This document shows, in pieces, positions 128-20,000 of a stretch of DNA of 20,000 bases. Source of the stretch: an uncultured virus (IMG/VR IMGVR_UViG_3300042294_002635) (taxonomy: Duplodnaviria; Heunggongvirae; Uroviricota; Caudoviricetes); IMG/VR virus record IMGVR_UViG_3300042294_002635; one strand, 5' to 3'. Under the pieces are notes generated by a model. That model ran no database searches and was not told where the DNA came from. It worked only from the letters and a program-made list of their open reading frames with translations. Every line of letters starts with the position of its first letter. Within the stretch, counting starts at the first letter, position 1. The position numbers and the translations under genes were made by a program.

Positions 128-3058
128 ATGAGAACCAGCGAACTCGGCTACCCTGTCCTGTCTACTCCACTGCACAATAAGGTTTTCGGCAGACAAAAGG
201 CAGCTTCAATGGGAGTTAAGGCACGTCAAAAGGCCGAACGACTCTTAAAGCAATTTGGAATATCTGTCCCTGTTGATCACCCTGACAACCTATACGATGG
301 CCCCTTGCCCCTTCCAAGCTTAAGGGGGGGCACTTTACAGGAGCACTTTGAGAATATAGCAACAGAGCAGGTAGGGGTGTACAAAAACCTTGCGAATTCT
401 CTAGCGGGGTGCAAACTCCCAAAACTCCCTGCAGTTTCCGACTTCGTCTATCAGGCGGGATGGACACGCTATGAGTTTGTAGACGGAAAGTTTCTTGTAG
501 AGTCCGTACCATACCCACTCGAAGAAGCTTTCACGTACGACACTGAAACCTTCGTGAAAGCGGGTGCGTTTCCGATTATTGGGACGGCGCTAAGTGAAAA
601 AGCAACCTACATTTGGCTCGCGGCAGAGCTTATTGACCCAACCATACCGGAGGAAGAGTGGGACCAACACGATCTCATTCCCATTGGGGAGAACAGGTTT
701 GTAGCGGGACACAATATTAGCTACGACCGAGTGAGAACACGGGAAGGATACTCACTTAGCCGTAACAAGCCTGAAAACTTCTACTTTGACACACTCTCCG
801 CGCATATCGGAGTGTCGGGTTTGGCTTCAGGTCAACGGTGGTTGTACCTTCTTGCGGCAAAAGACCCCGAAAACCTGACTGAAGAGGAAAAGAGAAAACT
901 CAGGTATGCACCAAAGTGGCTAGACGAGGGCTCAACAAACAGCTTGGTGCAATGCTACAACTTTCACGTTTACGAGGTTCGTAAGTACTTTGGCGATGAG
1001 ACTGTCCGTCCACTCAACCAAGGGGACAAAAAGATACGAGACATTTTCGTAGACGCTACGCATATCTCGCAAATCACAGCGGTTCTTGAGAAGGCTGTAG
1101 AGTACGCGGTGAGGGATGCATTTTACACAGCGGAGCTTTTTCAGGCTTTGTGGCCGAAGTATCTCGACAGTACACCGTCAATGGTTGGACTTTGTGGTCA
1201 CTACCACCTGAACGGATCAGTCGTCCCCTTGGTGGAAGACTGGGCTGAGTGGATTCAGAACACAGAAAGAGTGTTCCATGAGCACAGCCAGGAAATGACT
1301 GAGTTGTGCAGGGAGCTTGTGTGGAAAACGTACAACGAGTGGAAGACTGTCCTTAACAGCGTGGAGGACCCGGAGCGGGGCCTCGCGAAAGCACAGGAAT
1401 GGACAGAACATGACCCCTGGGTGTCCCAGCTTAATTGGGAGCTTCGGAGCAGAAAAGGCAAGTACGCTTGGGTTCCCTCGTGGGTTCAACCCTTTGTGAA
1501 AGACCCTCAACAGCACATCGGAGTAAAGTCGCAATTGGCGCACTTGCTGTTGAAGCTCAAATATGAGGGATCACCTATTATTCAAACCAAAACAGAGGGT
1601 TGGTGCTACTACGATGGAACGGGTGGCCTTGTGAAAGTCCCCCACCCAAAAGGAACTGGAGACAATACCGGAGTGTTACTCAGCAAGGACTTTGTCCAAG
1701 ATATGGAAACCGGGAGGCTAAGTAGCGATCTCCCTGAAGCTAAGAGAGCTCTGGAGATTTCAAACGCTATTTCTTACTGGACTTCTGTTCGTAAGCGGGT
1801 GATGGATCGGATATTCCTTGATACTGAAAACCCGCTTGGTTCGTCCGCTCTCGTGACTCTTCCCGAGATTCTCTGCCACGGGACGGTAACTCGAAGAACC
1901 GTTGAAAGCTTGATGGCAACCATGTGCTCCACGAAAAACTGGAGAATTGGCACGGAGCTGAAAACACGAGTGCAGGCCCCCGAAGGCTGGAAAATTGTAA
2001 GCGCCGACTACGATGGTCAAGAGCTTCAGATCGCATCCATATACAGCGATACTTGGGAGGGTGGCTTTGTCGGATGCTCGCCGATGGGCTACAATGTCCT
2101 GTCAGGATCCAAGGAAAACGGCACTGATCCTCACACCGCTCTTGCTCGTGCTATTCTCCCTGAGATGTATAGGGGGCTTGTGTGGGACAGGAAGCTAGGA
2201 ATTTGTTACAGTCATGAGAGTGAACCGTTGAATGTACCAAATTGTGTAAAGGCTGGAGAAAAATGGTTAAGCCCAATTGAACCCCAGTTGTACAAACTCC
2301 TGGCGAAAGCCAGAGACCTGAGCAAGATTGTAGGCTTCGCAACCTTGTACGGAGGTAGCGTAAGAGCCCTAAGCACTCCAATTCGACGAACTTTTCCTGA
2401 GAAAGGGGAGAGAGAAGTTAAGGATTTCGCACTGAAAGCACTGTCATCGAAAAAGGGGGTACTGGTGAACGGAGTGTATGAAGGTGGTTCTGACTCCGGC
2501 GCATTCAACTTGATGGAGCAAATCTCCATGAAGACAAAGGTTCCTCAGCTGCCTTGCCTTGGTACCAAAATTTCCACTGCAATGCGACCTGCGGCAGTTG
2601 GCACCGAATTTAGGACAGGACGCACAAACTGGGCCATTCAAGCATCGGGTGCCGAAATTCTATCTATAACGCTCACGGCTGTCGCGTGGCTAGCGGAAGA
2701 GTACAAAATCCCCTACCGCTTCATTATCAGCATCCATGATGAACTCCACTTCATGACCCCTGAGAGGTACGCCACTCAGTTTGCCGTGCTGTTCCAAATC
2801 GCCCACCTTTATACCTGGGCGAATTTTCACAGCGCGATGGATATACCGGAGCTTCCACTTAGTCGTGCGTTCTTCTCCTCAGTAGCAATTGACTCTCGGA
2901 TTCGTAAATCCCCGAAAGAGTGTACGGTTACACCTTCAAACCCCCACGGTGCGAAAGAACCTAACGGAGTTGAGTACTCGATGACCGAACTCGGTGAGAC
3001 TGGGGCTGTAGACAAGCTAAAGACACGATACGAAGCTATTCAAAAAGGACTGATTTGA
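128..3058 (+). CDS. Family A DNA polymerase, mitochondrial Pol-gamma-like, with 3'-5' exonuclease
   Basis: ExoI FTYDTE; ExoII VAGHNISYDRVR; FDTLSAHIGVSG; KVPHPKG..NTG..LSKDF; GTVTRRTVE; RIGTELK..VQAPEGWKIVSADYDGQE (motif A); RDLSKIVGFATLYG (motif B); RTNWAIQASG; RFIISIHDE (motif C); AFFSSVAIDSRIRK. These match Pol gamma/Mip1 blocks in order. Confidence 0.95.
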   Translation: MRTSELGYPVLSTPLHNKVFGRQKAASMGVKARQKAERLLKQFGISVPVDHPDNLYDGPLPLPSLRGGTLQEHFENIATEQVGVYKNLANSLAGCKLPKLPAVSDFVYQAGWTRYEFVDGKFLVESVPYPLEEAFTYDTETFVKAGAFPIIGTALSEKATYIWLAAELIDPTIPEEEWDQHDLIPIGENRFVAGHNISYDRVRTREGYSLSRNKPENFYFDTLSAHIGVSGLASGQRWLYLLAAKDPENLTEEEKRKLRYAPKWLDEGSTNSLVQCYNFHVYEVRKYFGDETVRPLNQGDKKIRDIFVDATHISQITAVLEKAVEYAVRDAFYTAELFQALWPKYLDSTPSMVGLCGHYHLNGSVVPLVEDWAEWIQNTERVFHEHSQEMTELCRELVWKTYNEWKTVLNSVEDPERGLAKAQEWTEHDPWVSQLNWELRSRKGKYAWVPSWVQPFVKDPQQHIGVKSQLAHLLLKLKYEGSPIIQTKTEGWCYYDGTGGLVKVPHPKGTGDNTGVLLSKDFVQDMETGRLSSDLPEAKRALEISNAISYWTSVRKRVMDRIFLDTENPLGSSALVTLPEILCHGTVTRRTVESLMATMCSTKNWRIGTELKTRVQAPEGWKIVSADYDGQELQIASIYSDTWEGGFVGCSPMGYNVLSGSKENGTDPHTALARAILPEMYRGLVWDRKLGICYSHESEPLNVPNCVKAGEKWLSPIEPQLYKLLAKARDLSKIVGFATLYGGSVRALSTPIRRTFPEKGEREVKDFALKALSSKKGVLVNGVYEGGSDSGAFNLMEQISMKTKVPQLPCLGTKISTAMRPAAVGTEFRTGRTNWAIQASGAEILSITLTAVAWLAEEYKIPYRFIISIHDELHFMTPERYATQFAVLFQIAHLYTWANFHSAMDIPELPLSRAFFSSVAIDSRIRKSPKECTVTPSNPHGAKEPNGVEYSMTELGETGAVDKLKTRYEAIQKGLI

Positions 3059-6688: not shown

Positions 6689-6783
6689 CTCTAGGTATAC
6701 ACCCTAAACCTTTGGCCTACGGGCACCACCGCCGGACTTATCCTCGCCGGCACAAAGGTAAGGAAAAGGAGGAATCTACCCAA

Positions 6784-9700
6784 ATGGCAACTTTTTCTTT
6801 CGGCACCGGTATCGTCCCCGGAGCACCAGGTACATATATCAACGAGCGTGTTGGAAATGTAGCTTCCACAGGTATTGCCTCGTTCAACACAACTTACATG
6901 TTGGTTGAAACTGAGGAAGACGTCACTGTCGCACGTTTCCCTTTCAACACACCAGTTCCAGTATCTTCACTAACCGACTACAAAGCCTTGGTAGGGAAAG
7001 TTCCCGAAACTCGTATTCCCCTCCTTAGCTACAACTGTGTGAATGCATTCTTTTTGAATGCGCAAGTTGGCGATCTTCGAGTCGTTCGTGTTGGAACTCC
7101 AAACCAGATTGTAGAAATAGAGATTCTTCCGTCGGGCTCCAAGATTAGTAGCACCGGCATTCCATCTACCCTTAAAGCTGGCGACGTAGTTTATGCTCAG
7201 CTTATTTTAAACGGGTTGAAGCTTGTTGCTGGAGACGGCTCAAACGGATACACATCCGAAGGGGAATGGCTCGGCGTGCCAACAGTAATTCCTGTTGATT
7301 ACATTTCCGGTGACAAGGTCAATAACCGCAAAATTTCTGCCGCAATTTCAAGCTCAATCGCCGCAGCTATTCAAAGTAACCCAAGTGTAAGCAGTGCCAT
7401 ATTCGTTCGTGACTCGGGCCTCGCAAACGATTTGCTCCCTTCTTCAAACTCGGAAAGCGGCTACGTAACAATTGCAGCAGCCACCTACGACGGGAGTGTT
7501 TCCGTAATAACCGAGCAGCTGCCAGTTGGAGCGCAAAAGGTCTTAATGCAGACCGCGTATAATATTCAAAATGTCGTTGGCCTTCAAAACAATCTTGAGC
7601 GAGTTCCTCAGGATTACGTTCAGTGTATTAACACTGCCTTTGACGGACAAGCAAACCAAGGGTACCTTGTAACTCCCACCGCGTACGCTCAGTTCGACGC
7701 CGAAGGCCGGTCTCTAGTTGGAGCAGCAGCTGCCGCACACTGCCAGGACAACAACTTTAAGTGGATGGCCGCAGCAGACCCAGGCTCCTTCCTTGTTACC
7801 GACGTAAACAAGTACAAAGAGTACACTCCGCATCAGCCCGCAGAAGACCTTGTAACCGACAACCTATACCTGGTTGATAACGCCATCTATCAGTGGAAGG
7901 GTGAAGAAGTAACATACGACCGTCTAAAACACCAGACCCTAGTTCCCGGCTACGACCCTAAGGTTGCTGTTCAGTCGTCAGTGGAGGGAGTAGCGGAGGG
8001 CGAAACTGTTGGCCTCCTAGACTTAGCCAAGTTCACAGTCACATCCTCTGCCTCTCTAGCCAACCGGGGAGTCTTCGCCCTGGGGTCAAGCACAGTTTGG
8101 CCGGTAGACTACCAGATTCAACGAGTAACATTGAGTGGCCTTGGCGCGGATTTTCTGCCCCTACTTCCACTTGGAGAAACCTCAACTGAGGTGTACTTCG
8201 TGGCACCCCCACTTTCCAGTGCCCAATACGGAACGTACCCATCAGACGGACAAGTACAATACGTTTATATCGCACAAACTTCTACTCAAGCTGTGTCAAT
8301 TCTGGCTGAAGTTACAGCCTTGGGGGGTACCAGTGCTGCATTAAACGCACCTTTAACTCCCTCCGGAGCATTCAGTGTTGCATCCCCAACTTCAAGTACA
8401 GCTCAAGCGACTTATACCACACCCCAGTGGGATTTACCTGTAACTATTGAGGGTCAGACCTCAAACTTGATTCACAATCTGACTGGTGCTCCTGCTTTTG
8501 TGAACACTCTCCACTTACCTGGAAGCTTACAGAACACCACCGATGACTACCGCCTATCCTTTGTAAGCCGCTCACTATTCAACCCCTCAACTGTGCTCTC
8601 CTCAAGCACTGTCCCAGGATACACCGGTGCCGTTTCCTTCGGAGTGACATCTCACAAATTAGTTAACGGACAGAAACTTTTCTTTACTAAGCCCATTCTG
8701 GCAGGCGCTGCAACCCTGTTTAAGGCAACAGTTAGAAACAATCTACAAGCTTATTATGTTAAGGTAATTGACCCCGATAAGTTTGTACTTGCAACTTCTA
8801 GCTCCAACTACCTTGCAGGTTCTTACGTTCCCTATCCTGTTGGGATGGTGAGCATTTCCACGAGTCCCACCATCCTATACACTTCGGTCCTAGGCGGCGG
8901 GTTAACTACTGTGAACCTCTCAGAGTTGAGCGTTGTTCCGCTGGTTCGAGGGAGAAAGTACGGTCTGGCTTCAGGTACAATCGCAGACCGTGCGTACGAT
9001 CACAACTTGCTCACGGCGAACGACGATCCAACTGTATCCCTGTACCTGAACTCAAGTCCCTTAGTTATTGGGTCGGAGCACGTCTACCCGTACGGTGAAA
9101 CTGCTAACGCGGGGTGGTTACCCTCTTTAGAACTTGTGGGGCCTGGGGAAACCTCAACGAGTGTTGAGAACTTTCTTTGCACCCCCACTGTGGACCAAAA
9201 CTTCTCTTCGGAAGCACACATCGTCCCTGTGATCGATCCGATTTTCGGAGGAAACTTCAGCGCAAGTACCACTGTTGTCCTCGGAAAGCTTGCTTCTGTA
9301 ACGCCATACGTCACCGCTTGTGGTCTCCTCGTTGACAGCACTGGAGTTGCAATTCAAGCAGCTCTATCAAAATTGAGCGGAGTTTATTTTAACGTTACGG
9401 TTGCACCGGCGAACTCCGTTGCTCCTGACGGAGTTACACGAGTCGTTGTCGGGGACAGGTTGGCGGTTACATTTGACGGCTCATCCTACAGTTGGGTTGT
9501 TGTGCCGGCGAACACCCTTGGCGGTGACTTGAGCACAGTTTCCACTGTTTGTTACGGTTCACAAGTTGAATTTGCCCTCACTCCTGAACAAACACCAAGC
9601 GCAAATCTGTGGAGATTCGAGACCATCACGTCTACCGAAATTATCGACGAAGCACTTCGTGGAGTTGGATTTGCAGGCGAACCTCAAGCTGTGTTTGTGG

Positions 9701-10437
9701 AAGCGGGTGTTGACAATGTCAACAGACTATTCGAGGACAGCCAGCGCTACTTCAATGCCTTCGGCTTCATCGCTTTCTACGGCCCATACGTGGAGAACTC
9801 GGCAGGACAATTTGTTCCCCCCTCTCCGTATGTGACCGGGATCGCAGCTCGCCGTTACCGCTCCGAAGGGTTCCAGTTCCCACCTGCAGGTACCAAGTAC
9901 CAACTCGCAGACGCTGCTGGCGTTCAAATTTCTGTAAACTCGGCTCAGCAAAACTTGCTCAACCCTGACGGCTGCAATGTTCTTCGTTCCTTGCCAGGGT
10001 ACCCTAACACTGCGGTGTTCGTCTGGGGTGGACGCACTCGAATCAACAAGGCAGTTGCGGATCAGCGTAAGTTCCAATTTGTGAACACTCGTGTGATTCA
10101 GAATGTTGTTTACGGTTCCCTTCGCAATGCTTTCGACAACCAGATCTTCTCGGTTGTTGACGGGTTTGGTATTGTGTTCAATCAAATTGTTTCCATTGGG
10201 AACAGCGTTCTGAGCCAGCTTTACCTCTCCGGTGCACTCTTCGGTGCGAGACCCTCGGACGCATTCCAAGTGATTTGTGACGAGCGCATTAACAGCGGAG
10301 ACAACCTCGAGAACGGTGTTGTTTTTGTGAAGGTGTTTGACACCCCCGTACCAACACTGGAAAGAATCGAGGTTGATCTTATTCGCGTCTCTGTTGGCCA
10401 AATGAATAGAGAACTTGATTCTCAGGGCCTAGGTTGA
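6784..10437 (+). CDS. Contractile tail sheath protein, unusually large (~1217 aa)
   Basis: Strong RBS (aaggagg) before ATG 6784; N-terminal APGTYINE; C-terminal AFYGPY, VPPSPYVTG, GFQFPPAG, LNPDGCNVLR, VWGGRT, FVNTRVI and FQVICDERIN sheath motifs. Confidence 0.92.
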   Translation: MATFSFGTGIVPGAPGTYINERVGNVASTGIASFNTTYMLVETEEDVTVARFPFNTPVPVSSLTDYKALVGKVPETRIPLLSYNCVNAFFLNAQVGDLRVVRVGTPNQIVEIEILPSGSKISSTGIPSTLKAGDVVYAQLILNGLKLVAGDGSNGYTSEGEWLGVPTVIPVDYISGDKVNNRKISAAISSSIAAAIQSNPSVSSAIFVRDSGLANDLLPSSNSESGYVTIAAATYDGSVSVITEQLPVGAQKVLMQTAYNIQNVVGLQNNLERVPQDYVQCINTAFDGQANQGYLVTPTAYAQFDAEGRSLVGAAAAAHCQDNNFKWMAAADPGSFLVTDVNKYKEYTPHQPAEDLVTDNLYLVDNAIYQWKGEEVTYDRLKHQTLVPGYDPKVAVQSSVEGVAEGETVGLLDLAKFTVTSSASLANRGVFALGSSTVWPVDYQIQRVTLSGLGADFLPLLPLGETSTEVYFVAPPLSSAQYGTYPSDGQVQYVYIAQTSTQAVSILAEVTALGGTSAALNAPLTPSGAFSVASPTSSTAQATYTTPQWDLPVTIEGQTSNLIHNLTGAPAFVNTLHLPGSLQNTTDDYRLSFVSRSLFNPSTVLSSSTVPGYTGAVSFGVTSHKLVNGQKLFFTKPILAGAATLFKATVRNNLQAYYVKVIDPDKFVLATSSSNYLAGSYVPYPVGMVSISTSPTILYTSVLGGGLTTVNLSELSVVPLVRGRKYGLASGTIADRAYDHNLLTANDDPTVSLYLNSSPLVIGSEHVYPYGETANAGWLPSLELVGPGETSTSVENFLCTPTVDQNFSSEAHIVPVIDPIFGGNFSASTTVVLGKLASVTPYVTACGLLVDSTGVAIQAALSKLSGVYFNVTVAPANSVAPDGVTRVVVGDRLAVTFDGSSYSWVVVPANTLGGDLSTVSTVCYGSQVEFALTPEQTPSANLWRFETITSTEIIDEALRGVGFAGEPQAVFVEAGVDNVNRLFEDSQRYFNAFGFIAFYGPYVENSAGQFVPPSPYVTGIAARRYRSEGFQFPPAGTKYQLADAAGVQISVNSAQQNLLNPDGCNVLRSLPGYPNTAVFVWGGRTRINKAVADQRKFQFVNTRVIQNVVYGSLRNAFDNQIFSVVDGFGIVFNQIVSIGNSVLSQLYLSGALFGARPSDAFQVICDERINSGDNLENGVVFVKVFDTPVPTLERIEVDLIRVSVGQMNRELDSQGLG

Positions 10438-11156: not shown

Positions 11157-12656
11157 TTGGCAAATAGGTTTAAGACAGCTCCGGTACCGAAGGGGGAGAT
11201 CTCAAGTTATACGAGCGACCCTTATAACTTATCCAGTATTTACATGTTTGGGAGCTCTTCTCCCTTTACTGGATCCGGAAATAGCATCGTTCGACCAAGT
11301 GACGACCTTCTCATCCAGAAGGGAGGAAACCGTGCGCTTTCCGTCTATCAGCGGCTTTTCTTTGACGAGCACGTACAAAGTTCGTTCTCAAAGTTAGTTC
11401 AAGAGGTTGTATCGAGACCGTGGTACGTTGAGGAATACAGCTCAAAGCCTGGCGATACTGCAGTAAGGGACTTCGTAGCAGAAATCCTCGAAGAACTACC
11501 CTTAGACGAGATATATAAGGGACTTGCTGAAGCCCTTATCGTGGGGTTTAGTGTTGGCGAAATAATGTGGAAGAAATCAAAACGCGGGGTGATACCCTTT
11601 GACATTAGAATTAGAGACCAGCGCCGATTTGTTTTCCAAGAAGCGGAAGACTCACAAACGGGCTTCACAATGAGGTGCTTAACTTTCAATCGTATGTTTG
11701 AGGGGGTTGAGCTCCCTGCTCGAAAATTCGTCGTAAATCGCTACTGGACTCAGCACAACGGGGACCCATACGGAACTTCGCTAGGGCGAGTTCTTTACCC
11801 TCTGGTAAAGTTCCGGAGAAGAGCCCTTGAGTCCTACGTTCTCTATGGGGACCGGTACGCAACACCCACAGCTGTTGCGACCGCACCCCTAAGCGCGTCT
11901 TCTGCTGAAATTGACACGATTTATGATCATATCTCAAACTTATCTCAGGAAACTGCGCTAATTTTGCCGGATGGGTACAAGCTTGAGTTTGTCAACCCGA
12001 GCGGAACTCCGGATGTGTTTAAGGGACTGATTGACTATATCGACAAGGAAATTAGCCTCATACTTTGCGGGGAAAACGAGGCTGGGCAAGCTGAGTCTGG
12101 ATCCAGAGCTTCTTCACAGGTTGCCAACGTTGTTCGAGTTGTGAAGGCAGCGGAAATTTCCGAAGCGATCTCTCACACTTTGACTCGCACCCTGGTACGA
12201 TGGATTGTAGACCTTAACTTCGGTGTAGACGTTGCAGCGCCAACCCTCACAAGGGAGTTTCGAATTGAGGAGTCTTCTCTCACTGCCACCGACCTGAGTT
12301 CCCTTATTGACAAGGGGTACAAACCGCGTAGGGAGTGGGTTGAGAGGCATTTTCGTATTGAGCTTGAAGACGAAGCTCCTGAGTTCACGACGAAAGAGGA
12401 AGAAGGGAATACCACCTATAGCCCTGACGAGGACGAGGACCTTTACGGATCTATTTTTGGTGCTGACGGAGAGTACCCCGAAGGAAGTCCAGAGGACGAG
12501 CCGGAGGGTGGCGACGAGCCAAAGCCGAAGGAAGAACCATCCGGTGAGCAAACCACGTACAACCCTGAAGAAGACGGAAACCTTTACGACTCAGTGTTCG
12601 GGAATGACTTAGAACCCACTGAAGAGGGCAAAAAGAAGGGTAAAAAACGTATATGA
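11157..12656 (+). CDS. Portal protein (Mu gp29 / DUF935-like)
   Basis: TTG start with aagaggt RBS; AL..GFSVGEIMW, DPYGTSLGR.LY, DRYATP, IDYIDKEIS.ILCG, GSRASSQV and LVRWIVDLNFG motifs; acidic C-terminal tail. Confidence 0.88.
   Translation: MANRFKTAPVPKGEISSYTSDPYNLSSIYMFGSSSPFTGSGNSIVRPSDDLLIQKGGNRALSVYQRLFFDEHVQSSFSKLVQEVVSRPWYVEEYSSKPGDTAVRDFVAEILEELPLDEIYKGLAEALIVGFSVGEIMWKKSKRGVIPFDIRIRDQRRFVFQEAEDSQTGFTMRCLTFNRMFEGVELPARKFVVNRYWTQHNGDPYGTSLGRVLYPLVKFRRRALESYVLYGDRYATPTAVATAPLSASSAEIDTIYDHISNLSQETALILPDGYKLEFVNPSGTPDVFKGLIDYIDKEISLILCGENEAGQAESGSRASSQVANVVRVVKAAEISEAISHTLTRTLVRWIVDLNFGVDVAAPTLTREFRIEESSLTATDLSSLIDKGYKPRREWVERHFRIELEDEAPEFTTKEEEGNTTYSPDEDEDLYGSIFGADGEYPEGSPEDEPEGGDEPKPKEEPSGEQTTYNPEEDGNLYDSVFGNDLEPTEEGKKKGKKRI
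12638..12646 (+). promoter_or_regulatory. GGGTAAAAA variant motif, candidate late promoter
   Basis: Immediately upstream of the protease/scaffold ATG; overlaps portal Lys codons, so it may be coincidental. Confidence 0.35.
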
Positions 12657-15232: not shown

Positions 15233-15264
15233 TAGCTCCGATACTGCTGCCCGGAGATTAAGCT

Positions 15265-15972
15265 ATGGACCTTCTAACTTTGGTCGGGCAGGTAACGAAA
15301 AAGCGAGCGGACTACTTCTCTCAAGCAGAGGTCTTAGCTCGCAAAGCGAAAACACAAGAGAAGCTGGAAAGTCTCATGACAAACCAGTCGAAAGTTCTTG
15401 TGAAGGCTTTGCGAGACAAGGATATTCGCTGGGATGAGTATTCTCGAACTTTGATTGATAAAACGCTGTCGGCAGCCCTCGCTGCCGTTTACCTGGGGGC
15501 AGGGAAAGCCGCACCGAAAGCAAAAGTCGAACGGGCCTGGGGCACTGTGACCGGGCAAATGCTCCCACCTTTGTTGGAATTCTTGAGCCAAACTGAACTA
15601 GCCTTAAACGACGGGACTCTAATGCTCGGCGACGACCGCATAAATTTCTCGGAAATTGATCTTAAAGACATTTACGAAGGAGACGAAGAGGTGTTCCCAC
15701 CGAAGCCGAAAATGTCCTGGCTGAGCCTTGTTACCAGAGTCGTTCGCTACCTTGCAAACCCTTCCTACTCATTTTTCAACCTTGGTGACTCCTACGTCAA
15801 ACAAGAGCAGGGTTACCGGGAGATGCGGCGAGTGCCAGTATTGGACAGGAGAACTTGCCCCGACTGCATAAAGTTTGGGGAGATGGGGTGGCAGCCCTTT
15901 GGAACCCTGCCGATGCCGGGGCAAGAGTGCCGGTGCTACGATCGCTGCCGCTGCCGAATCGACTACCGTTGA
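15265..15972 (+). CDS. Head morphogenesis protein (Mu gpF / SPP1 gp7-like)
   Basis: C-terminal DRRTCPDC...LPMPGQECRCYDRCRCRIDY cysteine motif; located in the head cluster. Confidence 0.7.
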   Translation: MDLLTLVGQVTKKRADYFSQAEVLARKAKTQEKLESLMTNQSKVLVKALRDKDIRWDEYSRTLIDKTLSAALAAVYLGAGKAAPKAKVERAWGTVTGQMLPPLLEFLSQTELALNDGTLMLGDDRINFSEIDLKDIYEGDEEVFPPKPKMSWLSLVTRVVRYLANPSYSFFNLGDSYVKQEQGYREMRRVPVLDRRTCPDCIKFGEMGWQPFGTLPMPGQECRCYDRCRCRIDYR

Positions 15973-16013
15973 CTTTTAAACGAACTCACCATGGTTCAAA
16001 CTAAGGTGAAGCA

Positions 16014-16022
16014 GGGTAAAAC
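16014..16022 (+). promoter_or_regulatory. GGGTAAAAC motif, candidate late promoter
   Basis: Intergenic, upstream of the decoration gene. Confidence 0.6.
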
Positions 16023-16096
16023 CTGATTAACTAAGCTAGGTGAAAAACAAGTCCTAGAGAAACCAACAAAACCAATAACCCTTTGAAAATATCAAA

Positions 16097-16570
16097 ATGG
16101 CCTTTAACATTGCACCAGTTTACGGTAAGCAATTCATTCGTTACGCGGAGACTTTCACAGCTGCTACTGACAACCAAGGTGGAACGGCTGGAGTCGTTGA
16201 AATTCCTGAGTTCGCAGTTGTTGCTTACGCAACCTACGCCGGAGCTAACAAAGTTTGCGCCCCTGGAAACCTGACCGCTTTTGATGGGAAGATTGTAGGC
16301 GTGAATCAGTCCTACATTCCCACAGCCCTTTCCCAACCTCGCACCGCTCGTCAAGCTTCTGTGGCCACCAGTGGCTCCTTGCTTGTTGAAGTGAGTGCCA
16401 GCGCCGTGGCCCCCTTCGTACTCAACGCCCAGCTTTCAGTTGGTGCTGACGGCAAGGCGCTACCCACTGCGAATACCGGGACCAACGTCACTCTTGACGG
16501 TACTATCCCGCTCATTCGTGAAATCGTGCGAATCGGCGGTCGCACTGTCTTGCTGGTTTCATTCGCCTGA
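16097..16570 (+). CDS. Probable head decoration / capsid cement protein
   Basis: 157 aa, rich in Ala/Gly/Val/Thr; ASVATSGSLLVE...LSVGADGKA pattern; directly upstream of the major capsid gene. Confidence 0.6.
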   Translation: MAFNIAPVYGKQFIRYAETFTAATDNQGGTAGVVEIPEFAVVAYATYAGANKVCAPGNLTAFDGKIVGVNQSYIPTALSQPRTARQASVATSGSLLVEVSASAVAPFVLNAQLSVGADGKALPTANTGTNVTLDGTIPLIREIVRIGGRTVLLVSFA

Positions 16571-16578
16571 GAAAAGCT

Positions 16579-16599
16579 GACGCATTTCGGTGCGTTTTT
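16579..16599 (+). terminator. Intrinsic terminator 1
   Basis: gacgcat-TTCG-gtgcgtt hairpin running into a T-tract. Confidence 0.6.
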
Positions 16600-16602
16600 A
16601 CT

Positions 16603-16635
16603 AAGAGCCTTCAACTTTCGAGTTGGGGGCTTTTT
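16603..16635 (+). terminator. Intrinsic terminator 2
   Basis: agccttcaact-TTCG-agttgggggct hairpin running into a T-tract. Confidence 0.75.
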
Positions 16636-16647
16636 CGTGAAAAAGAA

Positions 16648-16656
16648 GGGTATAAC
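16648..16656 (+). promoter_or_regulatory. GGGTATAAC variant motif, candidate major capsid promoter
   Basis: Just after the terminators and about 90 nt before the capsid ATG. Confidence 0.55.
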
Positions 16657-16743
16657 TACAGTGACCCCAAAGTTTTCGGACTCGCGGGTCAGATTGCTTC
16701 GGCAATCTTTGAAGTCAACTTTACACACAAGGAAACATCTATT

Positions 16744-19700
16744 ATGATGAATCATAAAGGTTCCACTCAGAGGTGACTCTGATTGAAAATCGGGTGAATT
16801 GCTGGGATACCTTAGTTTTGCTTTTGCAAAATAGGCAATCAGCAGCCAAGGCCCCTAGGGATGGGGGCAAGGTTCAACGACTAACAGCGTACCACTAGAA
16901 CAGTGATGAGGCTGACACGAGTGCCCGACTCTTTGCTCAGGCAAAGATGATGATATAGTCTGAACTTTACAGAAATGTAGAGAAGTAAAGGATAAAGAGC
17001 CTTTACGATAACAAGTTGCTACAACAAACTTATGCAGGTGTGGATTAATTAGGGTCCCAACTTCCAAACAAAGTTGAAAATCGGGTGAATTGCTGGGACA
17101 CCTTAGTTTTGCTTTTGCAAAATAGGCAATCAGCAGCCAAGGCCCCTAGGGATAGGGGCAAGGTTCAACGACTAGATTAAGTAGCCTAGAACAGGCGAAC
17201 AATCCACGAGCGCCCGACTCTTTGCTCAAGCAAAGATGATGATATAGTCTGACCTGTATGGAAACATACAGAAGCAAAAGATAAAGAGCTTTTGCGATAA
17301 CACTGGCCAATCCTCACAACACTCGCACAAGGCTTCATGCTCCCTTTGGTGTAGGGGAAAAGAAATTGGGTGAACTGCGGGAAAGCCTACTTTTGCTTAG
17401 CAAAAGGGTCAATCCGCAGCCAAGCTTCCGGTACACCGGAAGAAGGTTCAGAGACTACCTGGGGGATTTAGTTCCCTTAATAACAGGCTAGAGCGCCCAA
17501 CGTTTTGTAAAGAAACGATAAGATAGTCCGACACTCTGTGTAAGCAGAGAAAACATACTGTCCACCAACATTGCGAATCGATAGGGTTCCACTCAGAGGT
17601 GACTCTGATTGAAAATCGGGTGAATTGCTGGGATACCTTAGTTTTGCTTTTGCAAAATAGGCAATCAGCAGCCAAGTTTACTTAGGGTCTCTACTAACTA
17701 TAGTAGTGTTAAGTAAAAAGGTTCAACGACTAGAAAGTGATCAACCCTGAAATAATCTTTCCACGAGCGCCCGACTCTCCCTTACACTACCAACGGTACA
17801 TAAAGTTTATCCTCTCCAGACCCCCAAGGAGTTTGACACGAGAACCCGGACACCACATTCACCATATAGTGCCCAAGTGCATGAAGGGTGGAAATGAAGA
17901 TGGTAACCTAATCAAACTCACCTACAGAGAGCACTACCTGTCTCACTGCCTACTGGCTCTAGCTTTCTCTTCCATAAAGAGGTTAGGCAAAGCTATAAAC
18001 TCTTTCAAGGAGTCTTCGAAAAACTCCAGAGTGTACGAAACCTTAGCTCATCATAAACACTCGGACGAAACTAGGTTTAAAATTGGCAAATCCAATAAAG
18101 GAAAGGCCAGACCCAGGAAAGTTCCAATGTCTGATAAAGAAAGATCCGCTCGTGCAGAATTATGCAAGAACAGAGTGTGGAGTGCAGAATCAAGACAGAA
18201 ACTTAAAGATAAGGCACTTAGTAAACCAACTATACAATTCGCCTTGCAAGCCGCTAATAGACCCGACCGGGATCGAACAGGCATTAAAAACCCTCGGGCT
18301 AATGTCGAAGTTTGGTCTAATTTAGGTTTATTGCATGAAGTTTGGGTTTCTAACGAAAAGTGTGGGGCCAGGAAGCTGTTCCGGCTAACCGGTCTAGGTA
18401 ATACTTGGCAGTCTCTGCGAACCGTTGTTAAAAAGTTTAAGGAAGATGATGATATAGTCTGATCTTTGCAGAAATGCGAAGAAGTGAAGGATAAAGAGCC
18501 TTCACGGTAACAAGTGTTTATCGCACCGGTTGTGGACACCCCTACCCGCGCTGGGAGAATTCTCAGATTTGGGAAGGAACAGTTTGCTATAAACGATTTC
18601 CGTCGTGCTTACGGAACTAACATCCCATACGTCCAAAGCCGCTACGACTCTGAGCCTTATGCTCTAGAGCAGGAAGTGGTCGCCTGGGAATTGCCTGAAG
18701 AGGTAATTGAAAATGCCGGGGAAGGGCCCGCGCAGGTGGATTATTTTTTACGTGCAATTTCGATCGCAGCGTAGGTCCACTATAAATTGGGTGAATTGCT
18801 GGAACCCCCGTGTGGGAAATCAGCAGCCAAGTTTACTACGTCGAATCAGTACTATACTGAAAGTAGTAAAAAGGTTCAACGACTAGATGTTGAGTTTCGA
18901 CAACAATAACGCATCCACGAGCGCCCAAAGCATTGTATGCCACTACTTAAACAAGTACGAGAAGTGGTATTGGAGTTTAATTGACAAGTACGAGAAGAGA
19001 GACCAACTCCCAGACCAATACGAGTGCCATCACCCCATCCCCAAAGAAATTTGGCCAAAAGGGTGGAGAGACTCTTCCGTAATTTGGACTGTTGGAGTTA
19101 CCTTTAGGGAGCACTTTATACTTCACCTTTTGCTGGTGAAGTCTGGTTTGTCTGGCTCTTGTGCCCTGAAAAGATTTTTAGATCAGTTCGGGCGCGGAAG
19201 AAACAAAACCTCTACAGCCACAAATCTTAAGCAGTTTTGGAAAGATTTCATGAACGCCAGGTTTGTCCCCCATAACAAAGGGAAGACAGGACTACCTTAC
19301 GTCACAGAAAGTTATAAACAAGCTGTAGGTAAAGGCGGAAGAGGGAGGTTGAACAACCCCTCCCTGGTATGCAAGCCTTGGAAAAATAACAAGGCATCAA
19401 ATGAAACCCTAGAAGTATGGGGCATTGCAGATTACCTTCACTTCCACTACCAGTTCGTCCCTAAAAAGAAAGGTAACAACGGTTGCTGGAGACTAGCAAA
19501 AGCAGTCGGCATCCCTCCCTCCACAACTTTGTCAAATATAGTCCAAGCTTTCAACGGAAAACTCAAATCTCTCTGTCCGAACGGGGGAAAGTGGGACCCG
19601 AACGAAGATCAAGACTGGATAACTTCCTCAATGTTATGATATAGTCTGAACATTGCCGACAACAAGGTAATGAATCAGCGGATAAAGAGCCGCTGAGTTA

Positions 19701-20000
19701 ACAAATTGCTTCGCGCAATCGAAACCAGGAATGCAATGTCCAGATTGATGAACAGCTACGAGTACACCGTTGCTCAAGCTGTTTCCGTCACCGCGACTTA
19801 CAACCCTTACGAGCCCTATAACGGAACCGCAGGTTCCCAGACCGGACTCGGTTTCACAACCTGGACAAACTTCAAGACAGCTTACGGCTCCGTTGCTGGA
19901 GACGCCGCCTGGTCTGGTGCTACTTCTAACCCAATTGAAGACATCCTAACCCTCAAGCGTGCAGTCGCCAACCAAATCGGTATCCGTCCAAACTCCGCAG
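16744..20000 (+). CDS. Major capsid protein, split by five group I introns, 3'-partial: join(16744..16752,17019..17045,17307..17345,17561..17578,18517..18741,19709..>20000)
   Basis: RBS aagga at 16729. The spliced product is MMN|LQQTYAGVD|PILTTLAQGFMLP|STNIAN|FIAPVVDTPTRAGRILRFGKEQF...GPAQVD|LRAIETRNAMSRL...WSGATSNPIEDILTLKRAVANQIGIRPNSA. VDPILTTLAQGF and W....SNPIEDI.......GIRPN are capsid-family motifs, and the gene position fits. Confidence 0.9.
16753..17018 (+). mobile_element. Group I intron 1 (266 nt, no ORF)
   Basis: P1 gaaU/Gttc; P AATTGCTGGGA; Q AATCAGCAG; R TTCAACGACTA; P3 tcgggtg/tgcccga; P8 tctttgc/gcaaaga; S ATGATATAGTC; terminal G at 17018. Confidence 0.9.
17046..17306 (+). mobile_element. 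Group I intron 2 (261 nt, no ORF)
   Basis: P1 ggaU/Gtcc; the same P, Q, R and S elements; begins with in-frame TAA; terminal G at 17306 restores VD|PIL. Confidence 0.92.
17346..17560 (+). mobile_element. Group I intron 3 (215 nt, minimal, no ORF)
   Basis: P1 tcccU/Gggga; P10 ttggtg pairs with exon caccaa; P AACTGCGGGAA; Q AATCCGCAG; R TTCAGAGACTA; S AAGATAGTCC; terminal G at 17560. Confidence 0.92.
17579..18516 (+). mobile_element. Group I intron 4 (938 nt) carrying an HNH endonuclease
   Basis: P1 gaaU/Gttc; 7-bp P10 cgatagg/tttatcg; complete P, Q, R and S elements; ORF expands P8; terminal G at 18516. Confidence 0.93.
17737..18462 (+). CDS. Intron-encoded HNH homing endonuclease with NUMOD3-like repeats
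   Basis: YQRYIKFI...HIHHIVPKCMKGGNEDGNLIKLTYREHYLSHCLL; HSDETRFKIGKSNKGK; WSAESRQKLK. Confidence 0.88.
   Translation: MINPEIIFPRAPDSPLHYQRYIKFILSRPPRSLTREPGHHIHHIVPKCMKGGNEDGNLIKLTYREHYLSHCLLALAFSSIKRLGKAINSFKESSKNSRVYETLAHHKHSDETRFKIGKSNKGKARPRKVPMSDKERSARAELCKNRVWSAESRQKLKDKALSKPTIQFALQAANRPDRDRTGIKNPRANVEVWSNLGLLHEVWVSNEKCGARKLFRLTGLGNTWQSLRTVVKKFKEDDDIV
18742..19708 (+). mobile_element. Group I intron 5 (967 nt) carrying an HNH endonuclease
   Basis: P1 gtggaU/Gtccac; P AATTGCTGGAA; Q AATCAGCAG; R TTCAACGACTA; S ATGATATAGTC at about 19636-19646; terminal G at 19708. Confidence 0.92.
18887..19639 (+). CDS. Intron-encoded HNH-type homing endonuclease
   Basis: KYEKWYWSLIDK...YECHHPIPKEIW...VTFREHFILHLLL, the same HNH subfamily pattern as the intron 4 ORF. 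Confidence 0.82.
   Translation: MLSFDNNNASTSAQSIVCHYLNKYEKWYWSLIDKYEKRDQLPDQYECHHPIPKEIWPKGWRDSSVIWTVGVTFREHFILHLLLVKSGLSGSCALKRFLDQFGRGRNKTSTATNLKQFWKDFMNARFVPHNKGKTGLPYVTESYKQAVGKGGRGRLNNPSLVCKPWKNNKASNETLEVWGIADYLHFHYQFVPKKKGNNGCWRLAKAVGIPPSTTLSNIVQAFNGKLKSLCPNGGKWDPNEDQDWITSSML

Follow-up and report, generated by a model that had tools for sequence, protein, structure and literature searches.

Probable exchange of core modules among group I introns crowded into the capsid gene of an uncultured lake phage

Introduction

Group I introns of phages usually occur singly, mostly in genes of DNA and nucleotide metabolism. Here we analysed a stretch of 20,000 nt (the window) from an uncultured virus of the Caudoviricetes (IMG/VR record IMGVR_UViG_3300042294_002635), in which the phage major capsid gene, starting at position 16744, is interrupted by five group I introns, with a sixth lying just past the window's end. 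Our favored reading, to which we assign a probability of roughly 0.75, is that the introns of this gene keep site-bound guides, while their cores recombine at the DNA level between paralogous self-splicing copies. The components of such a system, including group I introns, HNH homing endonucleases, and homing, are already known.

In phage T4, introns occupy three separate nucleotide-metabolism genes (td, nrdB, and sunY), and Bryk and Belfort reportedly described in 1990 recombination between the homologous cores of these different introns, yielding recombinants that delete the intervening DNA. Like the T4 introns, those described here are probably IA2-like, include copies with predicted endonuclease open reading frames (ORFs) in a peripheral loop, and have cores that would serve as substrates for non-allelic recombination. 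However, the copies lie only tens of bases apart within one essential capsid gene, and the exchange appears conversion-like, with the exons kept. Fungal mitochondrial cox1 likewise contains many group I introns with homing endonucleases, whose presence varies among strains. Both cases involve many introns packed in one conserved, highly expressed gene, but the present gene belongs to a bacteriophage, its ORF-less introns measure 215-330 nt, its endonucleases are predicted to be of the HNH rather than the LAGLIDADG type, and its introns mostly form a single family.

The orf142 gene of Staphylococcus phage Twort contains three group I introns and shows exon skipping (Landthaler and Shub 1999, as relayed in an excerpt of PMC11878797). 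As characterized there, it resembles the present gene as a late structural gene, in a large myovirus, that holds several related phage-type group I introns. It differs in that the present gene has six introns, with up to 13 in relatives and exons as short as 5 nt, belongs to a population in which intron number varies from 0 to 13 over 16 sites and modules are exchanged between sites, and yielded no exon-skipping joint among the contigs of two RNA runs. In fungal ribosomal DNA (rDNA), the occurrence of related group I introns at new sites has been taken as a circumstantial sign of reverse splicing (Bhattacharya et al. 2005, excerpt of PMC3984707). Compared with that account, related introns again occupy several positions of one gene at sites matching a guide of 4-6 nt, but here the gene is a protein-coding phage gene, target-sharing introns are alike only at their 5' parts, and mosaicism is seen at the DNA level.

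Intron-rich phages have also been described. The 'Jug' huge gut phages contain about 18.5 introns over 360-400 kb, with genes in two or three pieces, and crAss-like phages are named alongside them as intron-rich (PMC12880540, in part). The excerpt reports many group I introns, as found here, HNH endonucleases, as predicted here, and splicing checked with metatranscriptome reads, whereas nearly all introns of the ~277-279 kb genome considered here reside in one 1,056-nt gene. In the freshwater cyanophage Pf-WMP3, the nicking HNH endonuclease I-PfoP3I belongs to an IA2 intron of the DNA polymerase gene (PMC3428280, in part), a setting that, compared by description, also combines a freshwater cyanophage with a group I intron and an HNH-type endonuclease, but with a single intron located in a replication gene. 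A survey from 2025 puts the total of phage introns at just over 100 and, in the section available, asks why the introns of Bastillevirinae colonized only genes of DNA and nucleotide metabolism (PMC11878797). Our literature search, which covered few subscription journals, returned no report of a multi-intron capsid gene in a cyanophage-like phage, of introns packed so densely into one phage gene, or of guides tied to their sites alongside cores that can be exchanged.

Results and discussion

The capsid gene and its six introns

Spliced alignment joins seven exons (Table 1) into an uninterrupted ORF of 351 codons that is colinear with the intronless homologues of loci L028 and L037, and the first 93 coding bases contain four of the six introns. 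Exons 5 and 6 match profiles of capsid proteins, the genes upstream (portal, protease, and a 157-aa gene) follow the order of a capsid module, and the capsid product shares 57.5% identity with the major head protein annotated in Synechococcus phage S-CBWM1. An Rfam scan of the whole window confined group I introns to 16739-19672, with intron 5 (49.9 bits, E 6.6e-11) falling just below the RF00028 gathering score of 50 bits. The intron boundaries are exact: all six introns have a T immediately before them and a G as their last base, and a guide sits shortly 3' of every 5' splice site (GGTTC, GGGTCC, GGGG, GGTTC, GGTCCAC, and GCGT for introns 1-6), each complementary to its own exon end. In all copies, a segment of 30-33 nt separates the P7 5' strand from the P3' strand, where the P7.1/P7.2 hairpins typical of the IA2 (phage-type) subgroup would lie, and we tentatively place the introns in this subgroup.

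Contigs from RNA runs X15 and X16, which come from different studies, and from DNA runs X2 and X6 were aligned to 16600-20000. The exon joints 17045>17307 and 18741>19709 are present in RNA contigs of both X15 and X16, as is the joint 17346>18517, with the remaining 17 letters of exon 4 between its sides. The joint 16752>17019 is present in X16, and its X15 version is offset by one, with two letters between. Contigs of DNA runs X2 and X6 over the same interval contain none of the predicted exon-exon joints. The RNA joints are good evidence for splicing at the predicted positions, short of final proof, given as contigs rather than raw reads, for introns 1-5, and against a background of relatives that include intron-free DNA alleles. 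Taken with the RF00028 cores and the guides, they suggest that these introns are functional in self-splicing.

The P8 loops of introns 4 and 5 each contain a predicted homing endonuclease ORF (Table 1). These two ORFs are only distantly related, with 35% identity over just 40 aa around a His-rich motif, and their alignment displays a His-His...Asn...His-like stretch. The ORF of intron 4 further matches phrog_12434 'HNH endonuclease' (1.2e-6) and NUMOD3 (2.6e-4). Neither ORF matched a Pfam HNH model at E <= 0.01, and the PDB sequence search and NCBIfam returned nothing.

Within one transcript, introns 1 and 4 have guide and target in common, as do introns 2 and 5. Mis-pairing would skip exons 2-4 (84 nt) or exons 3-5 (282 nt), and either deletion would be in frame. 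Among the RNA contigs of X15 and X16, neither kind of joint was seen, including one from the 5' site of intron 1 to the 3' site of intron 4, a negative that carries no weight against exon skipping.

Near-identical blocks with sharp ends

The first-pass annotation of this DNA had reported identical or near-identical blocks shared between introns and exon words repeated at their insertion sites, and these observations hold in every detail. By direct string comparison, 16759-16850 equals 17585-17676 at 92/92 positions, and neither end can be extended; the block opens with GGTTC and thus includes the guide. The second pair, 16783-16883 versus 17074-17174, differs at 2/101 positions by the same comparison. 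The word GAAT precedes introns 1 and 4 (ATGAAT and GCGAAT), and GTGGAT precedes introns 2 and 5, although the latter two introns have nothing more than target word and guide in common in P1-P2. A repeat search recovered the same block families independently. When introns 1 and 2 are aligned, 3/101 columns differ within the block versus 31/135 downstream (Fisher P = 7.6e-6). Between introns 1 and 4, the contrast is 1/92 within the block and 39/52 beyond it (P = 4.7e-9). The identity of the blocks exceeds both chance and shared descent, and their breakpoints are sharp.

Site-specific guides and recurrent cores

A search of viral contigs guided by the protein sequence of exon 6 yielded 72 loci, of which 68 were mapped after exclusion of L076-L079 (capsids 42-43% identical). 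Exons were mapped with a spliced aligner constrained to introns following T and ending in G; twin introns at sites 36 and 41 were split by pattern, positions of sites 889 and 895 in L068 follow a rule-based refinement, and only parts of the truncated contigs L008, L013-L016, L025, L030, L041, and L050 and of the 5' end of L065 entered the analysis. The 68 loci contain 206 intron instances (121 distinct) at 16 positions of the coding sequence (CDS), namely 9, 36, 41, 75, 93, 150, 160, 192, 273, 281, 303, 318, 356, 889, 895, and 927, and Rfam gave 71 above-gathering matches in 11 of the mapped loci. Seven of the 121 distinct introns, in which one of four conserved anchor motifs is missing, were excluded from module typing, and the other 114 were cut at these anchors into five segments: S1 (P1-P2), S2 (P3-P7), S3 (P7.1/7.2), S4 (P8 with or without an ORF), and S5 (P7'-P9).

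The segments behave differently. Types of S1 are site-specific, with one exception, sites 9 and 93, which share a type in the window's lineage, whereas types of S2, S3, and S5 recur at many sites, a single S2 type being found at seven. For S1, identity is 0.77 between different lineages at the same site versus 0.40-0.42 between different sites; for S2, the corresponding values (0.73 versus 0.72 and 0.69) carry no site signal. Likewise, the nearest neighbor is a same-site intron for 72/103 introns in S1, but for only 23/103 in S2 and 13/103 in S3. The core (S2) is at least 88% identical to the core of another site at 14/15 sites tested, site 75 being the exception, and 100% identical at 8 sites. 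Other phage introns are only 69-79% identical over 100-240 nt among the matches listed. A core 14-mer was found in at least 122 stretches of other viral contigs; many of these matches are probably due to chance, and the set forms a rough outgroup in which 44 of the 80 fetched loci had any intron similarity among the matches listed. These comparisons support the view that the capsid-gene introns, except intron 3, form one cohesive family that multiplied inside this gene.

Exchange also appears to involve the endonuclease-bearing forms. Long and short forms at sites 9, 93, 318, and 895 differ across S2-S4 and thus beyond the ORF, suggesting that cores were replaced as cassettes, whereas at sites 303 and 356 the difference is confined to S4. 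An enlarged P6 is common to ORF-bearing introns of different sites. P6-P8 appears to be the cassette in which the endonuclease moves.

Origins of the individual introns

The first-pass annotation had proposed that the introns spread recently within one gene rather than by independent invasions. Shared cores across sites favor spread within the gene for all introns but intron 3, but the spread was not recent: for introns 3, 5, and 6 and most of intron 4, the segments find their nearest match at the same site in distant phages, a term used here for phages whose capsid gene DNA is only 77-86% identical. This is the outcome that the first-pass annotation had itself named as refuting its proposal, and these introns are therefore not recent local copies. 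Intron 3 is 94-100% identical to the same-site intron of the distant L033 in S1, S2, S4, and S5 and 87% identical in S3, and reaches at most 0.78 with introns of other sites (best S2 0.78, S5 0.60). It is therefore probably a separate lineage that invaded independently, in which respect the earlier proposal is not supported. Intron 5 compares with the same-site intron of the distant L026 at 1.00 in S5, 0.91 in S4, 0.89 in S2, and 0.87 in S3, and its S1 is 0.94 identical to L067. The S1 of intron 4 is 0.87 identical to the same-site intron of L068, and the S2 of intron 2 is 0.87 identical to same-site distant introns.

Intron 1 alone among the window's introns resembles its neighbors more than its same-site counterparts elsewhere. 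In S1, it reaches 95% identity with intron 4 versus 75% with same-site distant introns, and in S2, 98% with intron 2 versus 75%. It is a recent mosaic, in which the first six bases (16753-16758) and the last ~95 bases (16923-17018) match same-site introns of its own lineage. Between them, 16759-16850 agrees with intron 4, 16851-16883 with intron 2, and 16872-16909 (the P7.1/7.2 region) resembles intron 6. This map, together with the recurrence of S2, S3, and S5 types across sites, bears out the suggestion that modules were shuffled between copies and fits recombination or gene conversion between neighbors, one of the two mechanisms put forward by the first-pass annotation. Since introns 2 and 4 keep 0.87 identity to their own same-site relatives and intron 1 just 0.75, intron 1 is likely the recipient, with intron 2 the likely donor of the core block (17074-17174). 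Close haplotypes have a long, ORF-bearing intron 1, whose first ~185 nt are shared with intron 4. The short intron 1 of the window may thus derive from an ORF-bearing form that received its present core from ORF-less neighbors.

A model of guide retention and core exchange

We propose that the P1-P2 guide of each intron base-pairs with the final 4-7 bases of the exon, with U.G at the end, and thereby would set the splice site. The family would have colonized at least 16 positions of the capsid gene in a group of related lake phages, and the predicted HNH-type endonucleases in P8 of some copies presumably promote copying into alleles that lack the introns when phages co-infect. The cores are long and conserved and the copies are spaced by tens of bases (intron 2 begins 27 nt downstream of intron 1), from which we infer that they recombine at the DNA level. 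This exchange would take the form of gene conversion or double crossovers, possibly stimulated by endonuclease breaks, and would swap P3-P7, P6, P7.1/7.2, P8 with or without its ORF, and P9 between sites. The guide module would remain site-bound because splicing requires a matching guide. The near-identical blocks would then be the freshest exchange tracts, and intron 1 would have received P1'-P5 from the intron 4 type, P6-P7 from intron 2, and P7.1/7.2 from the intron 6 type.

Several points weigh against this reading. Conversion is read here from the comparison of sequences, and its polarity only from distant same-site similarity. Relationships were judged by nearest-neighbor and identity statistics, and module typing used single linkage at 90% identity, an arbitrary cut. 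Mixed-strain metagenome assemblies can form chimeras at repeats of ~100 nt, and the short contigs break at repeats, leaving the linkage from 5' to 3' on one molecule unproven. Whole-intron transposition followed by 3' divergence or replacement would give a similar picture for introns 1 and 4. Moreover, the likeness of sites 9 and 93 in S1 is also found outside this lineage (0.80), which points to an older duplication.

Alternative explanations

Reverse splicing, the other mechanism put forward earlier, would insert an excised RNA with guide GUUC (or GGUCC) into a GAAU (or GGAU) site of the capsid mRNA, followed by transfer to DNA, making introns 1/4 and 2/5 recent whole-intron copies. The shared target and guide of introns 1 and 4 and the shared GTGGAT of introns 2 and 5 fit this scenario, and both occurrences of GGAT in the 1,056-nt coding sequence are occupied. 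In intron-less capsid mRNA, GAAU is present at seven sites. For six random T-ending sites, the probability of at least two pairs sharing a 4-mer is P = 0.019, that of a pair sharing a 6-mer is P = 0.0185, and that of both coincidences is P = 0.003; over all 16 sites, however, target re-use does not exceed chance (P = 0.16 and 0.14). Sites 9 and 93 have the top between-site P1-P2 identity in every lineage (0.95 here, 0.80 outside), but introns 1 and 4 are alike in their 5' 92 nt alone, their P6, P8, and 3' parts being different, so donor and copy lack the whole-length likeness that recent copying would leave. Within the window, the S1 of intron 2 reaches at best 0.69 (with intron 4) and that of intron 5 at best 0.55. 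All four sites hold their own variants in distant lineages, hence any such event would be old. A search for RVT_1 in four related records (two of them 98-100% complete) came back empty, although a host enzyme could serve. Overall, reverse splicing is weakly suggested and we consider it unlikely as the source of the present pattern, while it is possible as the older origin of the 9/93 pair.

Independent invasions, in which each site was colonized separately from a general phage pool and similarity reflects a conserved core, would accommodate intron 3, to which introns of unrelated contigs are about equally near (76-79% over 90-139 nt, among the matches listed), and the core 14-mer is indeed widespread in other viral contigs. 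For the gene as a whole this is very improbable: cores are shared between sites far more closely than with outside introns, a further gene of one complete genome carries three introns that match those of the capsid gene over just 33-42 nt, and RF00028 matches above the cut-off concentrate in the capsid gene of four large related records (11/14, 4/4, 4/4, and 1/1).

An assembly artefact, with the blocks or a chimeric intron 1 arising from mis-joined mixed-strain reads, is scarcely credible even though public data hold several haplotypes with different intron sets and contig breaks fall at repeats, since the arrangement recurs in the public record G001 (100% identical to 15239-20000, 4,762 nt, and extending 960 nt beyond) and, as the same six-intron layout, in L019, 14 DNA runs from 14 listed studies contain 83-97% of sampled window words, contigs of the independent lake run X2 match the window with 0 differences and give the 92-nt block as a separate piece at roughly double depth (65 versus 23-32 on its flanks), long and short forms of a site differ in sequence and not merely in joining, and the RNA joints agree with the gene model.

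Intron turnover among relatives

Across the 68 loci, the 1,056-nt gene carries from 0 to 13 introns; among the 44 loci with the full coding sequence, 16 are intronless and 28 have 1 to 13. L039, L040, and L068 have 13 introns each, with intact spliced ORFs of 1,056 nt and gene spans of 5.8-6.6 kb (2117-7897 in L039). Their shortest exons measure 5, 6, 8, 9, and 10 nt, including those between sites 36/41 (5 nt), 889/895 (6 nt), and 273/281 (8 nt). Loci with 99-100% identical capsid protein differ in their intron sets, such as {9,36,75,93,318,895}, {9,41,281,303,(356),(895)}, and {9,36,75}, and near-identical capsid loci are polymorphic for presence or absence and for long or short forms at sites 9, 93, 318, and 895. 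Judged from these sequences, turnover of the introns is rapid.

A site-93 intron of 277 nt (L036 3285-3561; also in L039, L040, L045, and L067) has a shortened 3' tail, and the junction expected after GCGAAT is there without an in-frame terminal G. The sole in-frame solution places both splice sites 7 nt upstream and would change Ala-Asn to Ile-Leu. At CDS 150, 192, 303, and 927 (exons 5 to 7), four of the ten sites empty in the window phage, the window codon ends in G, A, or C, whereas intron-bearing relatives have the T required before the 5' splice site; this difference fits co-conversion of flanking exon bases or invasion-resistant alleles. A DNA contig of X6, from another haplotype, joins 17019>19709, connecting an intron 3' end to exon 6 via 14 other letters, which shows that strains differing in their intron set coexist in one lake sample.

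The complete genome G004 (279 kb) contains 14 RF00028 matches in the capsid gene and 3 in a second split gene, which is helicase/primase-like and has a P-loop-like motif in its upstream fragment. The three introns of this gene (L203 ~1879-2955 = G004 20378-21454, minus strand) appear to be of a different lineage, and their matches to capsid-gene introns are restricted to the core.

The phage and its environment

The window derives from a large tailed phage, whose module order was read from profile searches of the window proteins (Table 1). Its family A DNA polymerase has a mitochondrial-type exonuclease domain, a combination reported for S-TIM5-like cyanophages. The nearest isolate is S-CBWM1 (portal 60.7% identical), whose capsid gene is 1,026 nt long and uninterrupted. 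A megablast search of 16000-20000 against isolate phages gave as its sole match a 67-nt core stretch of Clostridium phage CPQ4. Related public records reach 277-279 kb, one with terminal repeats being rated 100% complete, and the sequencing runs containing the window stretch are lake and freshwater metagenomes. Its host is probably a freshwater picocyanobacterium.

Table 1. Positions of the capsid gene parts, intron features, and other genes in the 20,000-nt window
Feature	Position	Strand	Evidence and remarks
Exon 1, 9 nt, Met-Met-Asn	16744..16752	+	Spliced alignment; intronless homologues; RNA joint 16752>17019
Intron 1, 266 nt, no ORF, CDS site 9, after ATGAAT	16753..17018	+	RF00028 88.2 bits
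92-nt block (P1 3' strand with guide, P2, P3, P4, P5, P6 start)	16759..16850	+	
101-nt block, P3 to P7	16783..16883	+	98% identical to 17074-17174
Exon 2, 27 nt	17019..17045	+	Spliced alignment; homologues; RNA joints
Intron 2, 261 nt, no ORF, CDS site 36, after GTGGAT	17046..17306	+	RF00028 97.8 bits
Exon 3, 39 nt	17307..17345	+	Spliced alignment; homologues; RNA joints
Intron 3, 215 nt, CDS site 75, after CTCCCT	17346..17560	+	RF00028 66.0 bits
Exon 4, 18 nt	17561..17578	+	Spliced alignment; letters inside RNA joint of X15 and X16
Intron 4, 938 nt, CDS site 93, after GCGAAT	17579..18516	+	RF00028 72.2 bits
HNH-like homing endonuclease ORF, 241 aa, P8 loop of intron 4 (predicted)	17737..18462	+	phrog_655 1.3e-22
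Exon 5, 225 nt	18517..18741	+	phrog_1005 major head protein 1.6e-8; spliced alignment
Intron 5, 967 nt, CDS site 318, after GTGGAT	18742..19708	+	RF00028 49.9 bits
Second homing endonuclease ORF, 250 aa, P8 loop of intron 5 (predicted)	18887..19639	+	phrog_655 7.3e-8
Exon 6, first 292 of 577 nt	19709..20000	+	Phage_cap_E (PF03864) 9.1e-11; phrog_1005 3e-24
Intron 6, 329 nt, CDS site 895	Past window end		RF00028 84.4 bits in G001; also read in L003
Exon 7, 161 nt, last exon	Past window end		Read in L003
Family A DNA polymerase with mitochondrial-type exonuclease domain	128-3058		PF18136, 5.7e-61
Sheath-like protein, 1,241 aa, unusually long	6712-10437		Sheath homology confined to residues 980-1232
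Mu-type portal	11157-12656		Profile search
Head protease/scaffold protein, 859 aa	12653-15232		N-terminal ~400 residues match head maturation protease

Implications

Ordinary gene callers are blind to genes of this kind, and capsid-based phage surveys therefore miss or mis-annotate these phages. One structural gene that forms a natural series from 0 to 13 introns makes several long-standing questions testable, including the route of introns to new sites (guide-directed or endonuclease-driven), the concerted evolution of paralogous ribozymes, and the gain and purging of endonuclease genes, for which core-cassette replacement by a neighbor free of a homing endonuclease gene is a candidate route. 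It also poses the puzzle of how ribozymes fold and splice correctly across exons of 5-10 nt, with guide and target shared by two introns per transcript.

The broader picture, in which a single ribozyme family uses the capsid gene as a breeding ground, keeping its guide module fixed while freely exchanging the rest, seems to us an even bet. If true, the family would have settled in no fewer than 16 positions within 1,056 nt of coding sequence, with up to 13 copies per genome, exons down to 5 nt, and introns making up ~82-84% of the gene span, which would be the densest packing of self-splicing introns known for any protein-coding gene of phages or bacteria. Such a family would at the same time be a natural case of ribozyme retargeting through a guide swap, and the endonuclease-bearing copies may act as weapons between co-infecting lake phages.

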